A DNA stretch of 64,000 nt, from positions 72 through 64,071 of the forward strand of contig CAZQHU010000004.1 in NCBI GenBank assembly GCA_964592785.1, read 5' to 3'. The notes under the pieces are model-generated. The model ran no database searches, was not told where the DNA came from, and was given only the letters and a program-made list of their open reading frames with translations. The DNA is from an uncultured Gammaproteobacteria bacterium (GTDB taxonomy: Bacteria > Patescibacteriota > Patescibacteriia > Magasanikbacterales > UBA922). Below, one piece after another: positions 3,896-59,779 of the stretch (positions are counted from its first letter, which is position 1; each line of letters opens with the position of its first letter). The translations under genes and the position numbers were made by a program.

Positions 3896-4444
3896 ATGAA
3901 ACTCATCGTTGGTCTTGGTAACCCCGGTAAAACCTATGCCAAAACCCGTCACAATTTCGGGTTTATTGTGCTTGATGCTCTTCATAAAAAACTCCAAGAA
4001 GAAGGGATCAATAACTGGGAATTATCCAAAAAATTCAATGCCCAAGTTTCAGGACTCACCCTTAACAATGAAAAAATTATTCTGGCCAAACCCATGACTT
4101 TCATGAATAATTCTGGAATTGCGGTTCAACTTTTGGCTCACTTTTACAAAATTACTGCTGGAGATTTGCTAGTTGTTCACGATGATAAAGATCTCAAACT
4201 TGGCGAAATAAAAATTCAAACCGATCGCTCCTCAGCCGGACACAATGGCGTCCAATCAATCATCGATCACCTCGGTACACAAAATTTTACTCGCATTCGC
4301 CTCGGTGTCGCACCTGAGAAAGAAAGTAAGATGAAAGATACTGCCGACTATGTCCTCGGCAAGTTTGGCTTGTTTGAAAAGAAGAAAGTAGATGAAGTGA
4401 TAGAGAAAGCAGTGGAAGAAATAATAAAATTAATCTCCTCTTGA
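3896..4444 (+). CDS. pth: Peptidyl-tRNA hydrolase
   Basis: MKLIVGLGNPG...TRHNxGF signature and typical length. Confidence 0.9.
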   Translation: MKLIVGLGNPGKTYAKTRHNFGFIVLDALHKKLQEEGINNWELSKKFNAQVSGLTLNNEKIILAKPMTFMNNSGIAVQLLAHFYKITAGDLLVVHDDKDLKLGEIKIQTDRSSAGHNGVQSIIDHLGTQNFTRIRLGVAPEKESKMKDTADYVLGKFGLFEKKKVDEVIEKAVEEIIKLISS

Positions 4445-5213: not shown

Positions 5214-6293
5214 ATGAAAAAAGAAATTCTCTTCTCCTACTTCCCCAAAAACACTGTCAAACGCTACCAAGAACTGGTGGCGGTTTTTGATAATCTAGAA
5301 AACGCTTGGAATACAAGTATTGAAGACCTAATTAAAATCGGCTGGGAAGAAAAATTGGCACAAGAATTTACTGACTGGAAAAATAAAATTGACGAAGAAA
5401 AAATTGCCAAAGTCTTGCAACAAGAAAATATACATTGCCTCACCAGAGATGATGAAGCTTATCCAGCCAGTCTAAAAGAACTTTATGATCCACCTTTTTG
5501 TCTTTTTGTCCGAGGTAAACTACCAAAAGATGGATTCAATCTGGCAGTGGTCGGAACGCGAAAATATACTACCTATGGCAAACAAGTGACTGAAGAATTG
5601 GTCACTGAACTTACCCAAAATGGTCTAAATATTATTTCTGGCCTAGCTCTGGGGATTGATGGTATCGCTCACGAAACTTGTTTACAAAATAATGGAAAAA
5701 CTGTTGCTATTCTTGGTACAGGAATAAATAATAACCACATCTACCCAAGTATACACAAAAATCTTGCCAATAGAATTATTGAAAACAATGGCGCGCTTAT
5801 TTCTGAATATCCGCCCGGGGCTCTGCCTTCCAAATTTGGTTTTCCCAAAAGAAATAGAATTATTGCCGGGCTTTCGCTTGGTGTCCTCGTCACCGAGGCA
5901 CCCGAAGACTCTGGGGCGCTCATCACCGCTCAAGTAGCCAATGACCTGGGGCGAGAAGTATTTGCTGTTCCTCATGCCCTTACTTCACCCAATGCCACTG
6001 GCACCAATAACTTAATAAAAAACGGCGCCCACCTGATAAACTCTGCCAAAGATATTTTGGAAATTTTAAATTTACAAGAGATCAAACAATTTATCGGCAA
6101 TCGCCAGATTTTACCCGACTCTCCTACTGAGGCCAAACTTCTGGAACATCTCGGTAAAGAACCTCACCATGTGGATGAAATAATCAAACTTACACAACTT
6201 GACAGCCCTACTGTAAATGCTACACTTACTATGATGGAAATGAAGGGAAAGGTGAGAAATCTTGGAGGAATGATGTATATTCTTGGTAAGTGA
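5214..6293 (+). CDS. dprA: DNA processing protein DprA/Smf
   Basis: Rossmann-like DprA core (VVGTRKYTTYG...GLALGIDGIAH...GSLITA-like) and a C-terminal winged-helix region. Confidence 0.85.
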   Translation: MKKEILFSYFPKNTVKRYQELVAVFDNLENAWNTSIEDLIKIGWEEKLAQEFTDWKNKIDEEKIAKVLQQENIHCLTRDDEAYPASLKELYDPPFCLFVRGKLPKDGFNLAVVGTRKYTTYGKQVTEELVTELTQNGLNIISGLALGIDGIAHETCLQNNGKTVAILGTGINNNHIYPSIHKNLANRIIENNGALISEYPPGALPSKFGFPKRNRIIAGLSLGVLVTEAPEDSGALITAQVANDLGREVFAVPHALTSPNATGTNNLIKNGAHLINSAKDILEILNLQEIKQFIGNRQILPDSPTEAKLLEHLGKEPHHVDEIIKLTQLDSPTVNATLTMMEMKGKVRNLGGMMYILGK

Positions 6294-6713
6294 GTAAGTT
6301 TGTAAGTGTATAAGTTTATAAGTATGTCATTAGTAAAAAACTGGACTGATCTCAATGCCTGGAAAAAAGCTCATCAACTAGTAATTGAAATTTATAAAAT
6401 AACAAAAACTTACCCTAAAGATGAACTTTATGCTTTAATTTCACAAATTCGACGTGCCTCTGTATCTGTAGCGGCCAACATAACAGAAGGTTTTCATCGA
6501 GAAACTAAAAAAGATAGATTACATTTTTATACAATGGCTTCAACTTCATTAGAAGAAGTAAAATATCATATAATTCTATCAAAAGACTTAGAATATATAG
6601 ATGTAAACAAAGCAAGAGAAATTTATTCTTTAGCAAATGAAGTTGGTAGACTACTCAGACGTTGGATGCAAACCCAAAAATAACTTACTCACTTACAAAC
6701 TTACATACTTAAT
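6286..6713. mobile_element. Cassette bounded by inverted GTAAGT/ACTTAC repeat arms and carrying a four-helix-bundle gene
   Basis: Left arm TAAGTGAGTAAGTTTGTAAGTGTATAAGTTTATAAGT (6286-6323). Right arm CTTACTCACTTACAAACTTACATACTTAAT (6684-6713). The arms share the 15-mer GTAAGTTTGTAAGTG in inverted orientation. Confidence 0.4.
6306..6683 (+). CDS. Four-helix-bundle protein (23S rRNA intervening-sequence protein / Avd-like family)
   Basis: ELYALISQIRRASVSVAANITEGF motif typical of TIGR02436/PF05635. The ATG at 6324 is more likely the start than the GTG at 6306. Confidence 0.75.
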   Translation: MYKFISMSLVKNWTDLNAWKKAHQLVIEIYKITKTYPKDELYALISQIRRASVSVAANITEGFHRETKKDRLHFYTMASTSLEEVKYHIILSKDLEYIDVNKAREIYSLANEVGRLLRRWMQTQK

Positions 6714-6724
6714 AACTATACCCT

Positions 6725-7402
6725 ATGTCAAAACTAAATATGACTACAAAAAAACTCGTCTTTCTCACCGCCTTCGTTGCAACAGGCTTCACCCTCATGC
6801 AAATCCCCTTCACTCAAATCATTGGTTCCAGTTTGAAATTCAGTTTATTTGATTTCTATGGTCCAATCGCTGGTGCTTTTGTCGGCTCTATCTGGGGACT
6901 GATAACTGTCGGCGTGATGCAATTCGCCAACTGGGCTTGGCACGGTTTCGCTCTGGATGCTTCCACTCTCATCCGCCTTTTGCCAGTCTTATTCTCTGTC
7001 CTTTATTTCGCCCGCAAATCCAGGTGGCTCACCCTTGTTCCGGCTACTGCCATGATTGCTTTTTGGCTTCACCCAGAAGGTCGCCAGGCTTGGTACTATG
7101 CTCTATATTGGTTGATTCCAGTTATTGCTTATTTCTGGCATGAAAAATCCCTGCTTCTCCGTGCTCTCGGCACTACCTTCACTGCCCACGCGGTTGGTAG
7201 CACACTATTCCTCTATGTGTTAAATCTTCCGGCTTCTGTTTGGACCGGTCTTATCCCTGTGGTTTGGAAAGAAAGAATTATTATGGCTTTTGGTATTACT
7301 GTCACTTACATTGCTTTCAACTATCTTCTAAGTTTCTTGGAAAGAAAATATCATATTCAGTTGCCGTTTGTGAAGTTGAACCACAAGTATTCTGTTAAAT
7401 AA
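6725..7402 (+). CDS. Polytopic membrane protein, possibly an ECF-transporter S component
   Basis: About 6 hydrophobic helices and ~220 aa, lying immediately upstream of folC. Family assignment is tentative. Confidence 0.4.
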   Translation: MSKLNMTTKKLVFLTAFVATGFTLMQIPFTQIIGSSLKFSLFDFYGPIAGAFVGSIWGLITVGVMQFANWAWHGFALDASTLIRLLPVLFSVLYFARKSRWLTLVPATAMIAFWLHPEGRQAWYYALYWLIPVIAYFWHEKSLLLRALGTTFTAHAVGSTLFLYVLNLPASVWTGLIPVVWKERIIMAFGITVTYIAFNYLLSFLERKYHIQLPFVKLNHKYSVK

Positions 7403-7424
7403 ACTTTCCACCGGCATTCAGCCG

Positions 7425-8810
7425 GTGGCTCAGTTTATGACACATGCACAAGCCCAAAAATTCATCCTTTCCTGGACCAAACTAGGAAGAAAAGAATACC
7501 TAAAAGACCCCAAAAAATGCGGTGTTTATCTTCAGCGTCTGCAATATTTTCTTGATTTAATTGGCAATCCGGAAAAACAAATCCCTCATTATATCCATGT
7601 CACTGGCACCAGTGGCAAAGGTTCAGTGTGTTTGATGCTAGATTCAATCTTACGTGCGGACAAACGAAAAGTAGGAACCATGACTTCTCCAGAAATTGGA
7701 CCCACTCAAACTCGTTGGCAAATAAACGGCCAAAAAATGACTGATAAAGAACTAGCAGAGATTATTACTAAATTAAAACCAAAGCTGGATCTATATTTAA
7801 AAACTTCACCCTACGATCCTATCTCACATTTTGAACTCATGACTGCCATCGGACTTTATTGGTTCGCGCAAAAAAAAGTAAAGTGGTGTATTTTGGAAGT
7901 AGGACTCGGTGGACGGTATGACTCAACTAATATAATTCCCCATAAAGATATTGCTGTCATTACTAATATCGGACTGGATCATACGGAAATACTAGGAAAA
8001 ACCAAAGCCAAGATTGCTTATGAAAAAGCAGGAATTATTAAGCCGGGATGTAAAGTATTCACCAATGAACAAAATAAAAAACTATTAAAAATATTTGAAA
8101 AAGAAATTACAAAAAACAAAACAAATACTAAACAAATACTCAAATTATCATGCCAAAAAAACTTACAAACTTACAAACTTACAAACTTACAAACTATTTT
8201 TAAATATCAAAACCATACTTACAATTTAAATACACTTGGGGAACATCAAGTTGGCAATGCTATTCTCGCAATTGAAATAACTAAATCACTCAAAATCCCC
8301 TACTCAACTATTAAACGTGGTTTAGAAAAAGTAAAACTACCACTGCGCATGGAGATAATTTCCAAAAATCCGCTGATAATTCTTGATGGCGCCCATAATC
8401 CTGATAAAATGAAAACGACAGTAGAAACAGTGCGTAAGTTAATAAGTATGCAAGTGAGTAAGTATAAAGAAAAATCACACTTACACACCTATACACTTAT
8501 ACACTTACTCACTGGATTTTCTGCTGACAAAGACCTAAAAACAATGTGTCAACAACTAAAAACCCTAAACCCAAAAACAATCGCCATCACCAAATTCACC
8601 TCCCCTTTCAAAAAATCTGCCAAACCAAAAGATATTGAAAAATTGGCTAAAAAATATTTCAAAAATACCAAAATCAAAATTTTTAGCAACCCTCAAACCG
8701 CTTATACCACTACAAAAAATAAACTCAAAAAAAATGATCTATTATTGGTCACTGGTTCACTATATTTGAGTGGTGAAATTCGCGCTAAATTGACAAAAGC
8801 AAAAAAATGA
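7425..8810 (+). CDS. folC: Folylpolyglutamate synthase / dihydrofolate synthase (Mur-ligase family), with two in-frame repeat insertions
   Basis: Motifs HVTGTSGKGS, EVGLGGRYDSTN, ITNIGLDHTEILG and DGAHNP. Start is GTG 7425 or ATG 7437. Confidence 0.75.
   Translation: MAQFMTHAQAQKFILSWTKLGRKEYLKDPKKCGVYLQRLQYFLDLIGNPEKQIPHYIHVTGTSGKGSVCLMLDSILRADKRKVGTMTSPEIGPTQTRWQINGQKMTDKELAEIITKLKPKLDLYLKTSPYDPISHFELMTAIGLYWFAQKKVKWCILEVGLGGRYDSTNIIPHKDIAVITNIGLDHTEILGKTKAKIAYEKAGIIKPGCKVFTNEQNKKLLKIFEKEITKNKTNTKQILKLSCQKNLQTYKLTNLQTIFKYQNHTYNLNTLGEHQVGNAILAIEITKSLKIPYSTIKRGLEKVKLPLRMEIISKNPLIILDGAHNPDKMKTTVETVRKLISMQVSKYKEKSHLHTYTLIHLLTGFSADKDLKTMCQQLKTLNPKTIAITKFTSPFKKSAKPKDIEKLAKKYFKNTKIKIFSNPQTAYTTTKNKLKKNDLLLVTGSLYLSGEIRAKLTKAKK
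8161..8194 (+). repeat. Tandem octamer (ACTTACAA)x4, in-frame within folC
   Basis: Direct reading. It encodes LQTYKLTNLQT. Confidence 0.7.
8430..8514. repeat. Palindromic GTAAGT-type element inserted in-frame in folC
   Basis: Left arm GTGCGTAAGTTAATAAGTATGCAAGTGAGTAAGTATAAAG. Right arm CACTTACACACCTATACACTTATACACTTACTCAC, which is the inverted complement of GTGAGTAAGT(G/A)TATAAG. Confidence 0.5.
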
Positions 8811-43808: not shown

Positions 43809-45341
43809 AAAGGAGGTGATCCATCCCCAGCTTCCGCTAGGGATGCCTTGTTACGACTTCACCCTGATCACTGACCCTGCCTTAGTCCCCATAAGGAGCC
43901 TTTGGGCGTTGCCAGCTTTCGTGGTGTGACGGGCGGTGAGTACAAGACCCGAGAACGTATTCACCGCGCCGTATCTGATGCGCGGTTACTAGCGAATCCA
44001 ACTTCATGAGGACGAATTTCAGCCCTCAATCCGAACTGAGGCTAGCTTTTTGGGATTAGCTCCATCTCGCGATTTAGCAACCCTTTGTACTAGCCATTGT
44101 ATCATGCGTGTAGCCCTGGACGTAAGAGCCATGCTGATTTGACGTCGTCCCCGCCTTCCTCCCGTTTAAACGGGCAGTCTCGTGTGTACATTTAACACAC
44201 AATAGGGGTTGCGCTCGTTACCAGACTTAACTGTACACCTCACGGCACGAGCTGACGGCAACCATGCAGCACCTATCTAACACCTTCGAAAGCGGGCAAT
44301 GTTTCCATCGCCTTGCAGTTAGTAGTTGAGCCCAGGTAAGGTTCGCCGCGTACCGTCGAATTAAACCGCATGATCCTCCGCTTGTGCGGGTCCCCGTCTA
44401 TTCCTTTGAGTTTTAACCTTGCGGCCGTACTCCCCAGGCGGTGTACTTAACGCGTTTGCTTTTTAAAACGGCACTGAGAGGGTCGATACTCCCAATACCT
44501 AGTACACATCGTTTAGGGCGTGGACTACTAGGGTATCTAATCCTATTCGCTACCCACGCTTTGGTCCATGAGTGTCAGGCATGTTATAGCAAGCTGCCTT
44601 CGCCTTTGGTGTTCCTATCGATATCAGCGCTTATTACGACTACACCGATAGTTCCGCTTGCCTCTCCCAGCCTCCAGTCTGATAGTATCAACAGCAGTCC
44701 CGGAGTTAAGCCCCGGGATTTAACCATTGACTTTTCAGACAACCTGCGGACGCTTTACGCCCAATGAATCCGGATAACGTTTGAGGTCTCTGTATTACCG
44801 CTGCTGCTGGCACAGAGTTAGCAACCTCTTATTCCTAGGGTACCGTCACAAATTCGTCCCCTATAAAAGCAGTTTACACCCCGAAGGGCTTCATCCTGCA
44901 CGCGGCGTCGCTCCATCAGACTTTCGTCCATTGTGGAATATTCTTGACTGCAGCCTCCCGTAGGAGTCTGGGCAGTATCTCAGTCCCAGTGAGGCAGGTC
45001 ACGCTCTCACGCCTGCTACCCGTCATAGCCTTGGTGGTCTATTACACCGCCAACTAGCTGATAGGACATAGGCCTTTCTCCAAGTGATAAATCTTTAAAT
45101 GCGAATGACTTTTGTCCCCGCATTGCCATCGGGTATTAATCCACCTTTCGGTGGGCTATCCCCGTCTTGGAGGTAAGTTACCAATGTGTTACTCACCCGT
45201 TTGCCGCTCGTAACCCGTCCAACACTCTACCAACATTTATAAAAAATATTTTTAGAGTGTTGGTCGGGCACGTCGCTCGACTTGCATGCCTTAAACACGC
45301 CGCCAACGTTCATCCTGAGCCAGGATCAAACTCTCAGTAAA
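43809..45341 (-). rRNA. rrs: 16S ribosomal RNA, about 1.53 kb, not linked to a 23S
   Basis: 5' end GAGTTTGATCCTGGCTCAG (rc at 45315-45334). 3' end GGATCACCTCCTTT (rc at 43809-43822). Internal universal segments such as GTGCCAGCAGCCGCGGTAATAC (rc at about 44790) are present. Confidence 0.9.
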
Positions 45342-47437: not shown

Positions 47438-49513
47438 TCACTTCTTCCCTTCAGCAATCTGTGCCTCAATATTTTTTGGCACATCTGCATAATGATCAAA
47501 TTCCATAGCATAAGTAGCCCGGCCCTGTGACATGGAGCGTAAATCTGTAGCATAACCAAACATTTCTGAAAGAGGAACCATGGCGCGCACCACTTTGGCA
47601 GTACCACGCTGAGTCATCTCCAAAATCTGTCCGCGTTTGGAATTAAGATTGCCGATCACATCACCCATGTATTCTTCTGGAGTGGTCACTTCTACTTTCA
47701 TTACTGGTTCCAAAACTACAGGACTAGCTTTTTTGGCAGCCTCTTGAAAGGCCATAATACCAGCCATTTTGAAAGCGATTTCTGAAGAGTCAACTTCATG
47801 GTAAGAACCATCAAAAACAGTCACTTGCAAATCCACCACTGGGAAACCAGCTACCACACCTTTATCAATTGCTTCTTTCACGCCTTTTTGAATGGCTGGA
47901 ATATATTCGCGAGGAATAACACCACCTTTGACTTCATCAATAAATTCAAATCCTTGTCCACGTTCACGAGGTTCAAGTTTGAGATAGCAATGACCATATT
48001 GACCGCGTCCACCAGACTGTTTGATGTATTTACCTTCAGCTTCGGCACTCTGGCGAATAGTCTCTTTATAAGCTACTTGTGGCTTACCAACTTTGGCCTC
48101 CACTTTAAATTCACGCTTCATGCGATCCACAATGATTTCCAAATGCAATTCACCCATACCAGAAATAATAGTCTGTAATGTTTCTTGATCAGTATGAACT
48201 CGAAAAGTCGGATCTTCTTCAGCCAACTTTTGTAAAGCCAAGCTCATCTTCTCAGCATCAGCTTTGGTGTTTGGTTCAATGGCAATATCAATCACTGGTT
48301 CAGGGAAAACAATTTTTTCCAAAAGTACCGGACGATTTTCTGCGCAAAGAGTATCTCCAGTAGTGGTAGATTTAAGTCCTACTGCCGCAGCAATCTCTCC
48401 AGCATAAACTTCATTTACATCTTCTCGATGATTGGCATGAAGTCTAACAATACGACTAATACGTTCTTTTTCTCCATTGGAAGTATTGATTACATAGCTA
48501 CCAGCAGTCAAAACACCGGAATAAACTCGAAAAAAAGCCAACTTTCCCACAAAAGGATCAGTGGCTATTTTGAAAGCCAAAGCAGTAAAAGGAGCACTGT
48601 CATCAGCTTTAACAATTATTTCTTTGGTTTCATCATTAGGATCATGAGCTTTGATATCTGGCACATCCAGAGGTGAAGGTAAGAAGTAAGTGACAGCATC
48701 CAACACCAACTGCACCCCCATATTTTGCAAAGCTGAACCACACATTACAGGGTACATCTCATCTTGCAAAACCAAAGCGCGAATGCCAGACTTTATTTCA
48801 ACTTCAGTAAATTCTCCACCATTTAAATATTTATTCATGAGTTCATCATTAGCTTCAGCCACTTTTTCCAACAATTGAGCCCGATAAGTTTGAGCTCTTT
48901 CCAATTCTTCAGCTGGAATTTCCATTTCCACGATATTTTCACCGCTCTTACCTTCAAATTTATAAGCTTTCATTTTGATAAGATCAATGATCCCGGAAAA
49001 AGAAGATTCAGCCCCGATTGATAATTGAATAGCAAAAGCTTTGGGGGATAATCTTTCTTTAATGGAATTTAAACTCATATAAAAATCCGCACCCATCTTG
49101 TCCATTTTATTGACAAAACAAATTCTTGGCACGCGATATTTATCAGCTTGACGCCAAACTGTTTCAGATTGTGGCTCCACACCTTGGGAACCATCAAAAA
49201 CAGCTACTGCGCCATCGAGTACGCGCAAAGATCTTTCTACTTCCACAGTAAAGTCCACGTGGCCGGGAGTGTCAATAAGATTGATACGATGATCTTTCCA
49301 AAAACAAGTGGTGGCAGCTGAAGTAATAGTGATACCACGTTCTTTTTCTTGTTCCATCCAATCCATTTCAGCGGCTCCTTCATGTACTTCACCAATCTTA
49401 TGTTTCTTACCAGTATAAAAAAGAATACGTTCTGAAACAGTAGTCTTACCGGCATCAATATGAGCGGCAATACCAATGTTCCTGGTTTTGTCTAATGAAT
49501 ATTCACGAGGCAT
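47438..49513 (-). CDS. fusA: Elongation factor G
   Basis: [17 protein letters not shown]. Start at [15 protein letters not shown] (49513) matches orthologues. The upstream ATG at 49525 lies inside the repeat terminus. Confidence 0.9.
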
Positions 49514-49520
49514 AAGTTTA

Positions 49521-49646
49521 TTCATTCCGAGCGTAGCGAGGAATCTTTCTCACCTCGTACATATCGGAGTGTTTAGTTATTGATTTAAAAAAGTTTGTAA
49601 TAGGAAAGATTCCTCACCCTCGCTTGAACTCGGGTTCGGAATGAAC
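49521..49646. repeat. GTCATTCC-family MITE/REP-like element filling the rpsG-fusA spacer
   Basis: TIRs TTCATTCCGAGCGTAGCGAGGAATCTTTC and GAAAGATTCCTCACCCTCGC...CGGAATGAAC, with a central GATTTAAAAAAGTTT. Its terminus CGGAATGAATAAACTT lies immediately 5' of the fusA ATG. Confidence 0.6.
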
Positions 49647-50120
49647 CTACCGACGAGCGAAGTGAGCAAAAGCTTTGTTGGCTTCAGCCATGCGCACCAC
49701 ATCTTCTTTTTTCTTCATCGCGCCACCGGTTCCTGCCAAAACATCCAACATTTCACTAGAAAGTTTTTCAATCATGTTTTGACCTTTACGTTCACGCGCA
49801 GCACCAATAATCCAACGAAAGGCCAAAGCATTTTGACGCTCTGCTGGTACTGGCATTGGCACTTGGTAGTTCGCGCCACCGACACGACGAGAGCGGACTT
49901 CAACTGAAGGCCTGACTGTGTCCATCACTTGTTCAAATAAAACTACAGCATCAGCTTTTTTAACTTCTTGAAGTTTTTCCAAAGCACCATAAACAATTTC
50001 TTGAGCTCGGGTCTTTTTTCCGCTTTCCATGATCATGTTAATAAATTTGGCCAACAAAACACTATTATATTTTGGTTCTGGAGCCAAAACTCTTTTTGGT
50101 ACACTTTTTCCTCTAGGCAT
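49647..50120 (-). CDS. rpsG: 30S ribosomal protein S7
   Basis: MPRGKSVPKRVLAPEPKYNS signature. Confidence 0.9.
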   Translation of the reverse strand: MPRGKSVPKRVLAPEPKYNSVLLAKFINMIMESGKKTRAQEIVYGALEKLQEVKKADAVVLFEQVMDTVRPSVEVRSRRVGGANYQVPMPVPAERQNALAFRWIIGAARERKGQNMIEKLSSEMLDVLAGTGGAMKKKEDVVRMAEANKAFAHFARR

Positions 50121-50128
50121 ATAGTTCG

Positions 50129-50262
50129 TTCATTCCGAGCGTAGCGAGGAATCCTTCTTGCCTCGAACGTAGTCGGAATGTTTATTTTATGATTTAAAAA
50201 AGTTTTAATTTAAGAAAGATTCCTCGTTTAGTCCGTGCGAACGGACTCACTCGGAATGAACC
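50129..50262. repeat. GTCATTCC-family MITE/REP-like element filling the rpsL-rpsG spacer
   Basis: Near-identical to 49521-49646: TTCATTCCGAGCGTAGCGAGGAATCC...GAAAGATTCCTCG...CTCGGAATGAAC. Its terminus lies 9 nt upstream of the rpsG ATG. Confidence 0.6.
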
Positions 50263-50267
50263 TAAAA

Positions 50268-50693
50268 TTATTTACCAGCTTTCGGTCTCTTGGCTCCGTA
50301 GATAGAACGACCTTTACGACGGGCTTCTACACCCTGGGTGTCATAAACACCGCGAACAATATGATAACGAACACCTGGCAAGTCTTTTACACGGCCACCG
50401 CGAATAAGCACAATAGAGTGCTCTTGAAGATTGTGTCCTTCACCAGGAATATAAGCGATTACTTCCAAACCATTGCTAAGTCTAACCTTGGCGACTTTAC
50501 GCAAAGCTGAGTTTGGTTTCTTTGGAGTAGTGGTATAAACCTTGGTACAAACTCCACGTTTAAATGGGCAACCGCGACGCAAAGTGGTCTTGGCGCGATG
50601 CAAACTATCGTAGGTAAATTGCAAAGCCGGTGACTTGGATTTCACTGTCTTTGGATGTCTTCCCTTACGAATGATTTGATTCATTGTAGGCAT
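50268..50693 (-). CDS. rpsL: 30S ribosomal protein S12
   Basis: [12 protein letters not shown]...[11 protein letters not shown] signature. Confidence 0.95.
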
Positions 50694-50699
50694 AAGATT

Positions 50700-50817
50700 T
50701 ATTCATTCCGAACGAAGTGAGGAATCTTTTCCAACACGTACGTTCTTAAATAAAATTAAATAAAATAAAATTATTTTTTCTTAATAAAGATCTCTCACCC
50801 TTTGGGCTCGAGATGAA
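50700..50817. repeat. Degenerate third copy of the GTCATTCC-family element upstream of rpsL
   Basis: TTCATTCCGAACGAAGTGAGGAATC...GATCTCTCACCC...CTCGAGATGAAC. Confidence 0.45.
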
Positions 50818-59011: not shown

Positions 59012-59779
59012 ATGGAAACAGTCCCAGCTTACCAAGAAAAAAAATTTAAAAATTTAGAAAAAATTATCGGAATCAAATTTAACAATCCCAATTACTTGGT
59101 GCAAGCTTTGGTACATAGATCATATTTAAATGAAAACCGAGAATTTCCTTTGGGACACAATGAACGTTTGGAATTCTTGGGAGATGCTGTATTGGAATTG
59201 GTCGTAACAGAATTTCTTTTTCAAAATTACTTAAACCCCGAAGGAGAACTTACTTCTTGGAGAGCAGCTCTGGTAAACGCTATCATGTGTGCCCGAGTAG
59301 CCAAAGAATTAGGTTTTGAAGAATATTTATTCTTAAGTCACGGAGAAAGTAAAGATGCCGGCACCAAAGCTCGAGAATACATTTTGGCTAATGTTTTGGA
59401 AGCGGTTATCGGCGCCATCTATATTGATCAGGGTTGGGAAATAGCTAAACAATTTATTTTACGCTTTGTAGTAACCAAATTACCAGAAGTTTTAGAAAAT
59501 GGACTTTGGATGGATGCCAAATCACGTTTTCAGGAATCAGCTCAAGAGATTATTGGTATAACCCCCAATTACAAGGTATTGGAAGAAGCCGGTCCAGACC
59601 ACGCCAAAGAATTTGTAGTGGGAGTTTATTTAGACAAAGAAAAAATTGCCGAAGGCCGAGGCACCAGTAAACAAGAGGCTCAAACTGATGCTGCAGAAAA
59701 TGCCCTAAAAATTAAAAAATGGAAAGGTCCTCATGTAGAAATAGAAGAAAGAAAATTGGGTGATGAATATTTAGGTTGA
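59012..59779 (+). CDS. rnc: Ribonuclease III
   Basis: ERLEFLGDAVLELVVTEFLF signature and a C-terminal dsRBD. Confidence 0.9.
   Translation: METVPAYQEKKFKNLEKIIGIKFNNPNYLVQALVHRSYLNENREFPLGHNERLEFLGDAVLELVVTEFLFQNYLNPEGELTSWRAALVNAIMCARVAKELGFEEYLFLSHGESKDAGTKAREYILANVLEAVIGAIYIDQGWEIAKQFILRFVVTKLPEVLENGLWMDAKSRFQESAQEIIGITPNYKVLEEAGPDHAKEFVVGVYLDKEKIAEGRGTSKQEAQTDAAENALKIKKWKGPHVEIEERKLGDEYLG

Follow-up and report, generated by a model that had tools for sequence, protein, structure and literature searches.

Why a small gene of the PF05635/TIGR02436 family should lie between two inverted arrays of short repeats, within a row of ordinary protein-coding genes, is the question raised by the locus downstream of dprA in the DNA studied here. 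Intervening sequences (IVS) of rRNA that carry an open reading frame (ORF) have been known since the early 1990s; to our knowledge, the nature of these ORF-carrying IVS and the role of their protein have never been clear. In the explanation that we prefer, the gene and its two arms probably constitute one promoterless passenger cassette, the non-rRNA counterpart of the ORF-carrying IVS of 23S rRNA. A preliminary description of the locus had drawn the parallel with 23S rRNA IVS; none of its other leads proved as productive, and the parallel also holds for the arms. All positions refer to the window, that is, the whole 64-kb stretch of DNA that was analysed, and all features lie on the + strand.

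[quoted passage not shown] IVS have long been suspected of being selfish or mobile (PMC4990558).

Results

The dprA gene (5214-6293; 359 aa; from the ORF list, with matches to Pfam DNA_processg_A at E = 1.4e-76 and to DprA_WH) overlaps a left arm (6286-6323) of five tandem 8-nt units, each composed of [G/A]TAAGT and a 2-nt spacer (GTAAGT three times, then ATAAGT twice, separated by GA, TT, GT and TT). These five GTAAGTNN-type units are free of C and abut the ATG (6324) of the four-helix-bundle gene (6324-6683; 119 aa plus stop; S23p or 23S_rRNA_IVP family), whose TAA stop codon (6681-6683) shares its last base with the first base of the right arm (6683-6720). The right arm is free of G and consists of four to five ACTTACNN units, again with a period of 8; three of them read ACTTAC, one reads ACTTAA and one is degenerate (ACTATA), with TC, AA, AT and TA as spacers. 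Beyond it, the ATG (6725) of a membrane protein gene (6725-7402; 225 aa; ORF list) follows after 4 nt; in some relatives a Vut_1-family gene takes the place of this downstream gene. The preliminary description had reported inverted arms that share a 15-mer, begin at the dprA stop codon and end before the next gene, and both sequences and coordinates bear this out: the last dprA codons and the TGA (6291-6293) lie within the outer stem and the first repeat unit, the gap on the right is as short as stated above, and the perfectly paired core of the arms amounts to 15 bp (6294-6308 with 6690-6704). In a repeat search, the arms were recovered as 39 nt with 79% complementarity. Unit variants occur in identical 5'-to-3' order in both arms, not in mirror order. 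The tandem periodicity of 8, the lack of C or G in the respective arm and the further units inside the FolC-like gene (see below) had been overlooked in the preliminary description.

Such arrays are concentrated at this place. At up to one mismatch, GTAAGTNNGTAAGT occurs 12 times in the window as compared to 0.18 times expected, with 12 of the 12 occurrences within 6286-8508. A single complete cassette and two further arrays of the arm type were counted in the 64 kb, and together they span no more than 2.2 kb. The cassette has the orientation of the surrounding dprA, membrane-protein, folC and topA gene row. Inside it, no promoter or terminator signal beyond background was detected. A PADLOC search for defence systems returned no match, and the only rRNA match of Rfam in the window was a 16S gene 37 kb from the cassette, with none for LSU rRNA.

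The 119-aa protein matched PF05635 with E = 3e-37 and 127.5 bits (cut-off 33.8) and TIGR02436 with 118.2 bits (cut-off 24), and the family assignment made in the preliminary description is thus confirmed by two profiles far above their cut-offs. Its AF2 model (pLDDT 94.7) comprises four helices, for which Foldseek gave 2GSC (TM 0.90), 2RLD (about 0.8) and 4DWL (TM 0.75) as matches; phmmer also related the protein to 2GSC (E = 6e-13). As modelled, the fold is a four-helix bundle like that of XCC0516 and BT_0352. Both solved homologues were deposited as five chains each, and XCC0516 has been described as a pentameric toroid (PMC4990558). To judge from a dN/dS of about 0.09-0.16, obtained where dS is unsaturated, the protein is under purifying selection.

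The gene might alternatively be the Avd gene of a diversity-generating retroelement (DGR), or left over from one, with arms related to DGR RNA elements. Its fold, the Foldseek match to 4DWL and a Pfam bAvd match (5.7e-11) are in agreement with this, and in two relatives, L001 and L213, the membrane-protein gene and folC are separated by a complete DGR, at a distance of about 0.7 kb downstream; the DGR of L001 has a clear pair of template and variable repeats (TR/VR), and its own Avd-like ORF comprises only 78 aa. However, the score of 46.8 bits against the Avd equivalog NF033474 is below the cut-off of 80, and identity to the Avd proteins that the neighbouring DGRs encode in two relatives is only 23-25%, so that the affiliation with Avd and DGRs, which had been considered before, did not stand. 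The earlier remark that neither a reverse transcriptase (RT) nor template or variable repeats are present in the window proved correct: tblastn with two DGR RTs from relatives gave no match (E > 2), and self-blast of the window showed no TR/VR-like pair near the locus. Also, an RT was found within 3 kb in 0 of 132 other loci while positive controls were detected, the cassette is kept in lineages without a DGR, and the flanks of the 113-aa Avd of the L213 DGR, the one Avd whose flanks were examined, show no periodic arms. We consider membership in, or descent from, a DGR very improbable and close to refuted.

A stem-loop is predicted for 6271-6730, in which 6271-6316 pairs with 6682-6730 through 40 pairs (8 GC, 28 AU and 4 GU). 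The predicted stem loops out the four-helix-bundle gene, covers with its base the start codon and start region of the membrane protein gene, and brings the dprA stop and this start together. In the fold of a 461-nt region, the arms were paired in the MFE as well as in the centroid structure; folded alone, they formed 40 pairs with -37 kcal/mol, and as a mini-hairpin they reached a z-score of -5.7 when compared to shuffles.

An RNA stem under selection usually shows a bias towards G.U wobbles. Among the arm mismatches of 53 loci, no wobble bias was seen for the sense strand (38 of the G.U type vs 48 of the A.C type). The repeat arrays are not unambiguously alignable among orthologs, and pairing was compared there by the energies of cognate and non-cognate arms, which amounted to -37.8 and -34.4 kcal/mol, respectively (permutation p = 0.03), a weak effect. 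Judged from these sequences, conservation among ortholog arms is mainly that of the unit motif, not of specific pairs. The lack of wobble bias, the small edge of cognate pairing and the non-mirror order of unit variants weigh against the RNA-stem model.

In a family-wide survey, complementary flanks were found in about 60% of roughly 130 diverse relatives and in 1-4% of controls. Of 81 loci, 59% scored higher than the 99th percentile of 486 controls taken at shifted positions (Mann-Whitney p = 1e-23). Similarly, 62% of 48 loci lay above the threshold in a replication with viral contigs, and the same score was reached by 4.1% of 442 neighbouring genes that served as controls. The flanking arrays have a period of 7 or 8 and a median of 4.4 units (IQR 4.0-4.9 upstream and 3.9-5.4 downstream), and the purine-rich arm was located upstream in 31 loci and downstream in none. 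Upstream neighbours were co-oriented with the gene in a ratio of 54:10 and downstream ones in a ratio of 54:13, at distances of about 50 nt, and 0 of the top 20 loci were situated in rRNA. At 50% identity, the family amounts to about 18,000 protein clusters (E <= 1e-3) or about 4,300 (E <= 1e-10). The unit motif tracks the protein clade, with TAAGT/TAAGC in the CPR clade, GGAGTA in another and the CAGRAG type in the largest one, and a Mantel test of unit motif against protein gave rho = -0.24 (p = 5e-4). In the literature searched, no earlier account of such arms flanking copies outside rRNA was found, which does not by itself prove novelty.

In many relatives, units upstream are AGGAG-like and those downstream read CTCCT. 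The source genome possesses a canonical anti-Shine-Dalgarno sequence, yet a Shine-Dalgarno sequence precedes only 3 of 37 long genes. Mimicry of Shine-Dalgarno sequences was rejected as a general rule, given this low number and units that read GTAAGT.

Within Magasanikbacteria, the cassette occupies one conserved site, with synteny kept down to 59% protein identity, and all 8 distinct orthologous loci having the four-helix-bundle gene possess both arms, retained despite near-saturated synonymous sites. Comparing the synteny downstream of dprA in relatives, as had been proposed, revealed besides this conserved site two lineages from which the cassette is absent. In L219 and L220, dprA is followed directly by the membrane-protein gene, with neither the four-helix-bundle gene nor the purine-rich left arm in between, and a pyrimidine-rich tract resembling the right arm is still there. 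Because both empty sites keep this tract, the boundaries of the cassette are not cleanly defined. L220 is nested among cassette-bearing lineages. The tree of the four-helix-bundle protein was incongruent with those of dprA and of the downstream gene, and L128 and L212 are 88% identical in the four-helix-bundle protein and 67% identical in DprA; loss and exchange were inferred with simple NJ trees of 10 taxa. Relatives with about 50-56% identity and TAAG-type units reside in unrelated genomic contexts. On such sequence comparisons, the whole cassette is either there or missing, and its history differs from that of its flanks; it has not been recently mobile in Magasanikbacteria.

The arms could also be local low-complexity sequence or an ordinary intergenic hairpin, for example a terminator, without any particular link to the gene. 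In favour of this are the AT-richness of the genome (37.8% GC) and the existence of GTAAGTNN octamer repeats and (GTAA)n microsatellites in numerous unrelated genomes that lack the four-helix-bundle gene; when a genome collection was scanned with GTAAGTNNGTAAGTNNGTAAGT, the matches listed (Bacteroidota, Paenibacillus and others) were mostly (GTAA)n microsatellites and generic octamer arrays and showed no association with four-helix-bundle genes. However, the motif is far above expectation and confined to the cassette/FolC locus in the window, both arms are conserved in all orthologs in spite of synonymous near-saturation, the left arm is missing where the gene is missing, the association holds across the family and is lacking in controls, and no terminator-like site exists in the cassette. 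The chance that the arms are such sequence is close to nil, and the controls refute it. That the arms might be simple local low-complexity sequence had been the reservation of the preliminary description, and it falls with the same controls.

Repeat arrays of the same kind were detected without the gene. In the FolC-like gene, a one-sided array of four ACTTACAA units (8160-8192) is in frame and sits within a 20-aa FolC segment that is missing from L130; in blastn, 6674-6719 and 8153-8197 were 87% identical. An arms-only hairpin (8432-8510), also in frame in this gene, has a loop of 13 nt that separates four GTAAGT-type units from four of the ACTTAC type, and its fold has -31.8 kcal/mol (z = -5.6). 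This hairpin is conserved in L128; at its site, L130 has a shorter segment with a 17-aa gap and without repeat units, and L212 has a different hairpin at the codon position of the insertion. A palindromic segment is, in other words, present in some FolC orthologs and absent from others, with the reading frame kept. Arms-only derivatives also exist in L169 and L146, and the L169 copy retains a remnant of the 3' end of the ORF.

Such copies would fit a miniature transposon of the non-autonomous kind, bounded by the arms as terminal inverted repeats, moved by an enzyme encoded elsewhere and carrying the gene as cargo. This DNA-level reading was the view of the preliminary description. The inverted ends, the presence or absence at one site, the incongruent trees, the arms-only copies including the in-frame FolC insertion, and a strand-symmetric mismatch spectrum, as expected for maintenance at the DNA level or neutral decay, speak in its favour. 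However, by eye no direct repeat is seen beside the arms (left, TATTCTTG; right, CCCTATG), the ends lack defined termini and consist of tandem arrays that vary in length, and no transposase was noticed in a non-systematic inspection of the surroundings of about 130 loci. Across phyla, the linkage between cargo and arms is universal, with a unit sequence that changes with the protein, unlike in MITEs with random cargo; the strong co-orientation with host operons and the stable synteny in Magasanikbacteria also argue against a transposon, which we regard as doubtful. The mobile cassette proposed earlier is supported in part: arms and gene co-occur in 8 of 8 loci, L219 and L220 are empty, trees are incongruent, an arms-only copy resides in FolC and relatives occupy unrelated contexts. 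Synteny that is stable to 59% protein identity speaks against recent mobility, and neither a target-site duplication, looked for by eye, nor a transposase was seen.

Discussion

For the passenger cassette, we propose the following course of events. In the transcript, the stem would serve RNase III of the host as a substrate, which has been demonstrated in the case of the Coxiella IVS; RNA of the cassette would therefore be cut out of the host transcript or structurally bypassed in it, and insertion into rRNA or mRNA transcription units would therefore be tolerable. The mechanism needs RNase III, by which IVS stems are cut in other bacteria, and for this reason we list rnc (59012-59779), which is located outside the cassette and encodes a protein with the ERLEFLGD signature (TIGR02191 227 bits, cut-off 166). 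The cassette would persist as a selfish or domesticated passenger with occasional gain, loss, exchange and internal deletion, the latter leaving behind arms-only hairpins such as the one in FolC. A stem alone does not account for the purine-rich arm always being upstream, or for the approximately 4-5 tandem units per arm.

The arms may instead be primarily arrays of binding sites for the protein of the cassette itself, a putative basic homopentameric ring as in its family, with one 7-8-nt unit of RNA or single-stranded DNA per protomer; autoregulation or the assembly of a propagation particle would be the function, and arm complementarity would be secondary. We consider this possible, if rather unlikely; it is compatible with the stem model. 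It would fit the narrow range of 4-5 units per array (median 4.4) next to solved homologues of five chains, the pentameric toroid of XCC0516 (PMC4990558) and the pentamer of DGR Avd, the latter touching a dedicated RNA element in the DGR complex (bioRxiv 10.1101/2023.10.23.563531). The unit motif following the protein clade, orthologs keeping the motif rather than specific pairs, and the strict strand asymmetry (31:0), which fits single-strand recognition, are also in agreement with it. However, binding is putative throughout the family, the link between motif and clade may reflect shared cassette ancestry or the GC content of the host, and the unit count could as well result if stems of about 30-35 bp are preferred. 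Moreover, arms-only copies persist without needing a nearby gene product, and the Coxiella IVS is maintained though its protein is apparently not made (PMC4990558).

Taken further, PF05635 cassettes would be self-recognising ribonucleoprotein elements, in which a pentamer reads about five units of 7-8 nt in its own flanking arrays, one per protomer, and unit and protein co-evolve. Such a particle would be the basis both of the persistence or spread of cassettes in rRNA and mRNA transcription units and, by descent, of RNA recognition by Avd in DGRs. We think this generalisation unlikely to be right. If true, a function would be assigned to the 'S23p / IVS protein' after 30 years, and a large class of gene-plus-repeat elements would be defined, comprising about 18,000 clusters of proteins (50% identity).

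As seen from this locus and from the comparison with its relatives, the layout of an IVS, i.e. a four-helix-bundle gene, tandem 7-8-nt repeats and stem-forming inverted arms, is not peculiar to rRNA, and is the usual packaging of a very large protein family in ordinary operons across bacteria. If the passenger cassette is the correct reading, the IVS would be recast as one of several places in which such a cassette can land, which also offers an explanation for the puzzling scatter of PF05635 genes, for example inside cas operons (PMC3936711). Genome annotation could make use of this by recognising flanking arrays and the remnants that consist of arms only, among them those inserted in frame in essential genes.

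Avd of DGRs shares the four-helix-bundle fold (TM 0.75 to 4DWL) and the Pfam clan with the 119-aa protein, DGRs are nearby in two relatives, and, by analogy, the PF05635 family may like the Avd family form basic pentamers that contact RNA. In contrast to a DGR, the cassette has repeat arms in place of a template repeat, and neither RT nor TR/VR.

Rickettsia palindromic elements are miniature palindromes that insert into genes without disturbing the reading frame, and MITE- or REPIN-type elements are hairpin repeats. The segment at 8432-8510 resembles these in being a palindrome whose insertion leaves the FolC frame intact and which is passed on within a subclade, and the arms-only copies elsewhere look like internally deleted cassettes. 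Unlike all of these, the full element carries a conserved gene and its arms are tandem arrays of a short unit; we know of no transposase, RAYT or other, associated with them. In an integron gene cassette, a small promoterless ORF is joined to an imperfect inverted repeat, co-oriented and read from an upstream promoter. The PF05635 cassette shares the small promoterless ORF, the imperfect inverted repeat and the co-oriented insertion; however, it has two flanking arms instead of one attC, neither an integrase nor an attI platform, and occurs as singles scattered in ordinary operons.

The closest counterpart is the ORF-containing 23S rRNA IVS of Coxiella burnetii, Leptospira and others. IVS lie in an rRNA helix (helix 45 in Coxiella) and fragment the rRNA, whereas the cassette lies between protein-coding genes of an operon; its units have 8 nt and not 7 nt as in Coxiella, its ORF is intact and under purifying selection whereas that of Coxiella is decaying and apparently untranslated, and cutting by RNase III, demonstrated for the Coxiella IVS, is predicted for the cassette from analogy. 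Both have a PF05635 (S23p) ORF as their sole gene, terminal inverted repeats that give rise to a long stem enclosing this ORF and, in the case of Coxiella, short tandem direct repeats right upstream of the ATG, and both are co-oriented with the transcript of a host that encodes RNase III.

Repeat Arms and Predicted Stem Around the Four-Helix-Bundle Gene

The four-helix-bundle (4HB) gene (6324-6683, + strand; 119 amino acids) is located between dprA (5214-6293, + strand; Pfam E = 1.4e-76) and a membrane-protein gene starting at 6725, and sequence reading confirmed the repeat arms, the stop-codon overlap and the neighbor layout of the preliminary description. The 3' end of dprA reads ...GGT AAG TGA, its stop codon falling within the first unit of the left arm (6286-6323, + strand), a series of five units (GTAAGT-GA, GTAAGT-TT, GTAAGT-GT, ATAAGT-TT, ATAAGT) followed directly by the ATG of the 4HB gene. 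The right arm (6683-6720, + strand; ACTTAC-TC, ACTTAC-AA, ACTTAC-AT, ACTTAA-TA, ACTATA) starts on the final base of the 4HB stop codon. Both arms are tandem arrays of period 8, the left one free of C and the right one free of G, points missing from the preliminary description. When up to one mismatch was allowed, GTAAGTNNGTAAGT occurred 12 times in the window, compared to 0.18 occurrences expected.

An inverted-repeat search returned arms of 39 nt (79% complementarity, perfect core of 15 bp), and in a 461-nt fold the arms were paired in the MFE and centroid structures alike; they are thus true inverted repeats, as had been stated. Arms folded alone formed 40 pairs (8 GC, 28 AU, 4 GU; -37 kcal/mol). 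The predicted stem joins 6271-6316 with 6682-6730, and its base takes in the downstream start codon.

The window contains other repeats as well. A perfect 27-nt direct repeat (728-754 and 797-823) lies beside and inside a tRNA gene (776-849). Three gaps, apparently located between coding stretches (49508-49615, 50115-50225 and 50688-50729), share a repeat with core TTCATTCCGAGCGTAGCGAGGAATC (~110 nt, 85% identity) that forms a dispersed intergenic element of its own. The 3' end of the 16S rRNA (43809-43835, - strand) carries the canonical CCUCCU anti-Shine-Dalgarno, and a Shine-Dalgarno-like motif was present upstream of only 3 of 37 long window genes.

The 4HB Protein Belongs to the S23p Family

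The family assignment to S23p/23S_rRNA_IVP held (PF05635, E = 3e-37; TIGR02436, 118 bits), and no second member of this family was found in the window. The AlphaFold2 model consists of four helices (pLDDT 94.7) and has XCC0516 (2GSC, TM 0.90) and BT_0352 (2RLD) as nearest solved folds; Avd, the accessory protein of diversity-generating retroelements (DGRs), is farther away (4DWL, TM 0.75, 11% identity). Values of dN/dS versus orthologs of about 0.09-0.16, from the only comparisons with unsaturated dS, indicate that the protein is functional.

The suggestion that the gene might be an Avd and part of a DGR is rejected. With 46.8 bits, the protein scored below the cut-off of 80 bits of the NCBI Avd equivalog, the window has neither a reverse transcriptase (RT) nor a pair resembling template and variable repeats (TR/VR), as noted before, and an RT within 3 kb was found at 0 of 132 loci of relatives in a search that recovered both positive controls.

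In two relatives a DGR occupies precisely the interval that separates the membrane-protein gene from folC (L001:5153-8138; L213:2254-3469), an interval of only 22 nt (7403-7424) in the window. The one in L001 is complete, with RT, a 78-aa Avd-like ORF, TR (~6630-6760) and VR (~7150-7260); the VR lies at the 3' end of a target gene of 338 aa with strikingly high GC content. For L213, identification was limited to the RT and an Avd of 113 aa, and the contig ends shortly beyond. The two RTs are 33-44% identical.

Arms Are Retained at Orthologous Loci

Best-hit names place the source organism among Candidatus Magasanikbacteria (CPR). When synteny downstream of dprA was checked in relatives, the order dprA, 4HB, membrane protein, FolC-like and topA was kept in every ortholog-bearing locus, from 99% down to 59% identity, and both arms were present at all eight distinct loci, with [G/A]TAAGT units upstream, their complement downstream, and varying unit numbers and spacers. 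Synonymous sites have nearly saturated among these orthologs (pS 0.47-0.78), yet the arms persist, so the non-coding motif they carry is under maintenance. Cognate arms paired only slightly better than arms mixed between orthologs (-37.8 vs. -34.4 kcal/mol, p = 0.03); conservation is mostly of the unit.

The gene after the cassette, that is the 4HB gene with both arms, exists in two forms (window 6725-7402 compared with L129, L130, L213 and L214) that are about 20% identical, a 225-aa type without Pfam match and a Vut_1-family type. Their distribution differs from the DprA tree, suggesting replacement by recombination at this locus.

Empty Sites, Exchange and Arms-Only Copies

A search via DprA turned up two related lineages in which the site is 'empty' (L219, 54% identity; L220/L221, 60%): the 225-aa gene follows about 100 nt after dprA, without 4HB gene or purine-rich left arm. 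A pyrimidine-rich periodic tract resembling the right arm is still present at both sites. In L219 the gap (4081-4179) contains three copies of ATTCGTNA and three to four of TTTACTAN; in L220 (4078-4178) it holds a degenerate AAC-type period-8 tract and shares AATAACTATA with window 6712-6721. These tracts may be relics of a lost cassette or an older feature mirrored by the left arm. In the DprA tree, L220 is nested within cassette-bearing lineages, which points to loss or independent gain of the cassette.

The 4HB proteins of L128 and L212 are 88% identical (DprA, 67%), those of the window and L001 88% (DprA, 65%) and those of the window and L212 78% (DprA, 80%); judged from such identities, the history of the cassette is unlike that of its flanks. 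The relative's protein P0016 (56% identical) is encoded between unrelated neighbors, a purH-like gene and pyrG, with CTTACTG heptamer arms. Of the mobile cassette proposed earlier, the cassette stands and the DGR connection does not; mobility is partly supported, as ancient or occasional.

The arm unit also recurs twice, in frame, in the FolC-like gene 1.5-1.8 kb downstream, which had escaped the preliminary description, as a one-sided array of four ACTTACAA (8160-8192, + strand) and as a complete arms-only hairpin (8432-8510, + strand; -31.8 kcal/mol, z = -5.6). In a FolC alignment both segments are absent or shorter in L130; the GTAAGT-type hairpin is common to the window and L128, L130 has none, and in L212 the corresponding codon position is occupied by an unrelated GC-rich hairpin. 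Right after GAHNPDKMKTTV lies a hot spot where hairpins insert in frame (window 8388-8520; L128:3223-3408; L212:4572-4698; L130:3639-3779). At the site of the ACTTACAA array, L128 (2960-3070) has another octamer array, four AATTTTCA, and its FolC-like gene is divided by a stop codon into two ORFs, which may mean that the gene is a pseudogene, that the assembly is wrong, or that the interruption is programmed.

Other phyla (L169, L146) likewise have arms-only hairpins, built of the local unit, in the vicinity of cassettes. Both copies in L169 (1045-1185 and 4520-4600; CAGGAGN unit) have GGCAAAGAGTAA...ACATTCTG just 5' of the pyrimidine arm, which looks like the final codons of a deleted four-helix-bundle ORF, so that these copies resemble internally deleted cassettes.

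In a scan of a genome collection (L009-L127), many unrelated bacteria as well as some archaea (L018, L035, L046, L090 and L116 are examples) were seen to carry (GTAA)n microsatellites and long, pure arrays of the octamer GTAAGTNN, with no four-helix-bundle gene nearby. Among the matches listed, only L125 has such a gene in the fetched stretch, flanked by CCAGTAA/CCAACAA-type heptamer arrays that we take to resemble heptamer tandem repeats described in cyanobacteria.

The Cassette Architecture Is Family-Wide

We scored the 70 nt before the start against the 70 nt after the stop for complementarity in 80 diverse relatives from metagenome contigs (40-52% identical) and in 52 relatives from viral-labelled contigs. 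For the metagenome set, 486 shifted positions within its loci served as control. The median score of this set was 11, compared to 6 in controls (Mann-Whitney p = 1e-23), and 59% exceeded the 99th percentile of the shifted positions, as did 62% of the viral-labelled set. A chance origin of the arms is rejected, given their presence in 8/8 orthologs and the 4.1% of 442 neighboring genes that reached the threshold. The architecture is family-wide, and this generalization is the main value of the finding.

Across the family, about three quarters of the tandem arrays have period 7 and the others period 8; unit number varies little around a median of 4.4. Units are diverse (CAGGAGT, GGAGTAG, TAGGAAT, GAAGTTA and others) and track protein clade (Mantel rho = -0.24, p = 5e-4), GC content being a possible confound. 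Cassettes are co-oriented with their two neighbors (54:10 and 54:13), at gaps of about 50 nt, and none of the 20 strongest examples is located in an rRNA gene. If the cassette were a DNA-level element with terminal inverted repeats (TIRs), its indels and arms-only copies would be accounted for; the universal tie of the arms to one gene, the changing unit sequence and the operon co-orientation would be left without explanation.

Most likely, pairing of the arms takes place in the transcript of the operon and loops the 4HB gene out, and the resulting stem would be a substrate for RNase III, for which the window has a gene (59012-59779, + strand; TIGR02191, 227 bits). With the dprA stop and the following start codon brought together at the stem base, flanking genes may be expressed almost as if the insertion were 'transparent'. 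A role in RNA structure alone is disfavored by several points: wobble bias is lacking among mismatches (38 G.U vs. 48 A.C at 53 loci), unit variants follow the same order in both arms instead of mirror order, the purine-rich arm is always upstream (31 loci, none downstream), and the arms measure about 4-5 units. Another explanation, compatible with the first, may therefore apply, in which the protein, pentameric in solved homologues, might read the repeat units.

Comparison With rRNA Intervening Sequences

[quoted passage not shown] That IVS was termed selfish, older proposals being a transposition remnant or a mobile element with a mobility-aiding ORF (PMC4990558). In our sampled relatives, GACAGRA-type heptamers rank with the most frequent units. 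ORFs of the 23S_rRNA_IVP type are also known from 16S and 23S insertions of CPR bacteria (PMC11270868) and were noted, without explanation, inside cas operons (PMC3936711; PMC10910872); a literature search of incomplete coverage returned no description of repeat arms around non-rRNA copies. The window cassette shares with the IVS the ORF family, an enclosing (predicted) stem and tandem repeats before the ATG, but it is not located in an rRNA helix, the defining site. We accordingly regard it as a cassette of IVS type outside rRNA, to be described as IVS-like in its working and not as a member of that class.
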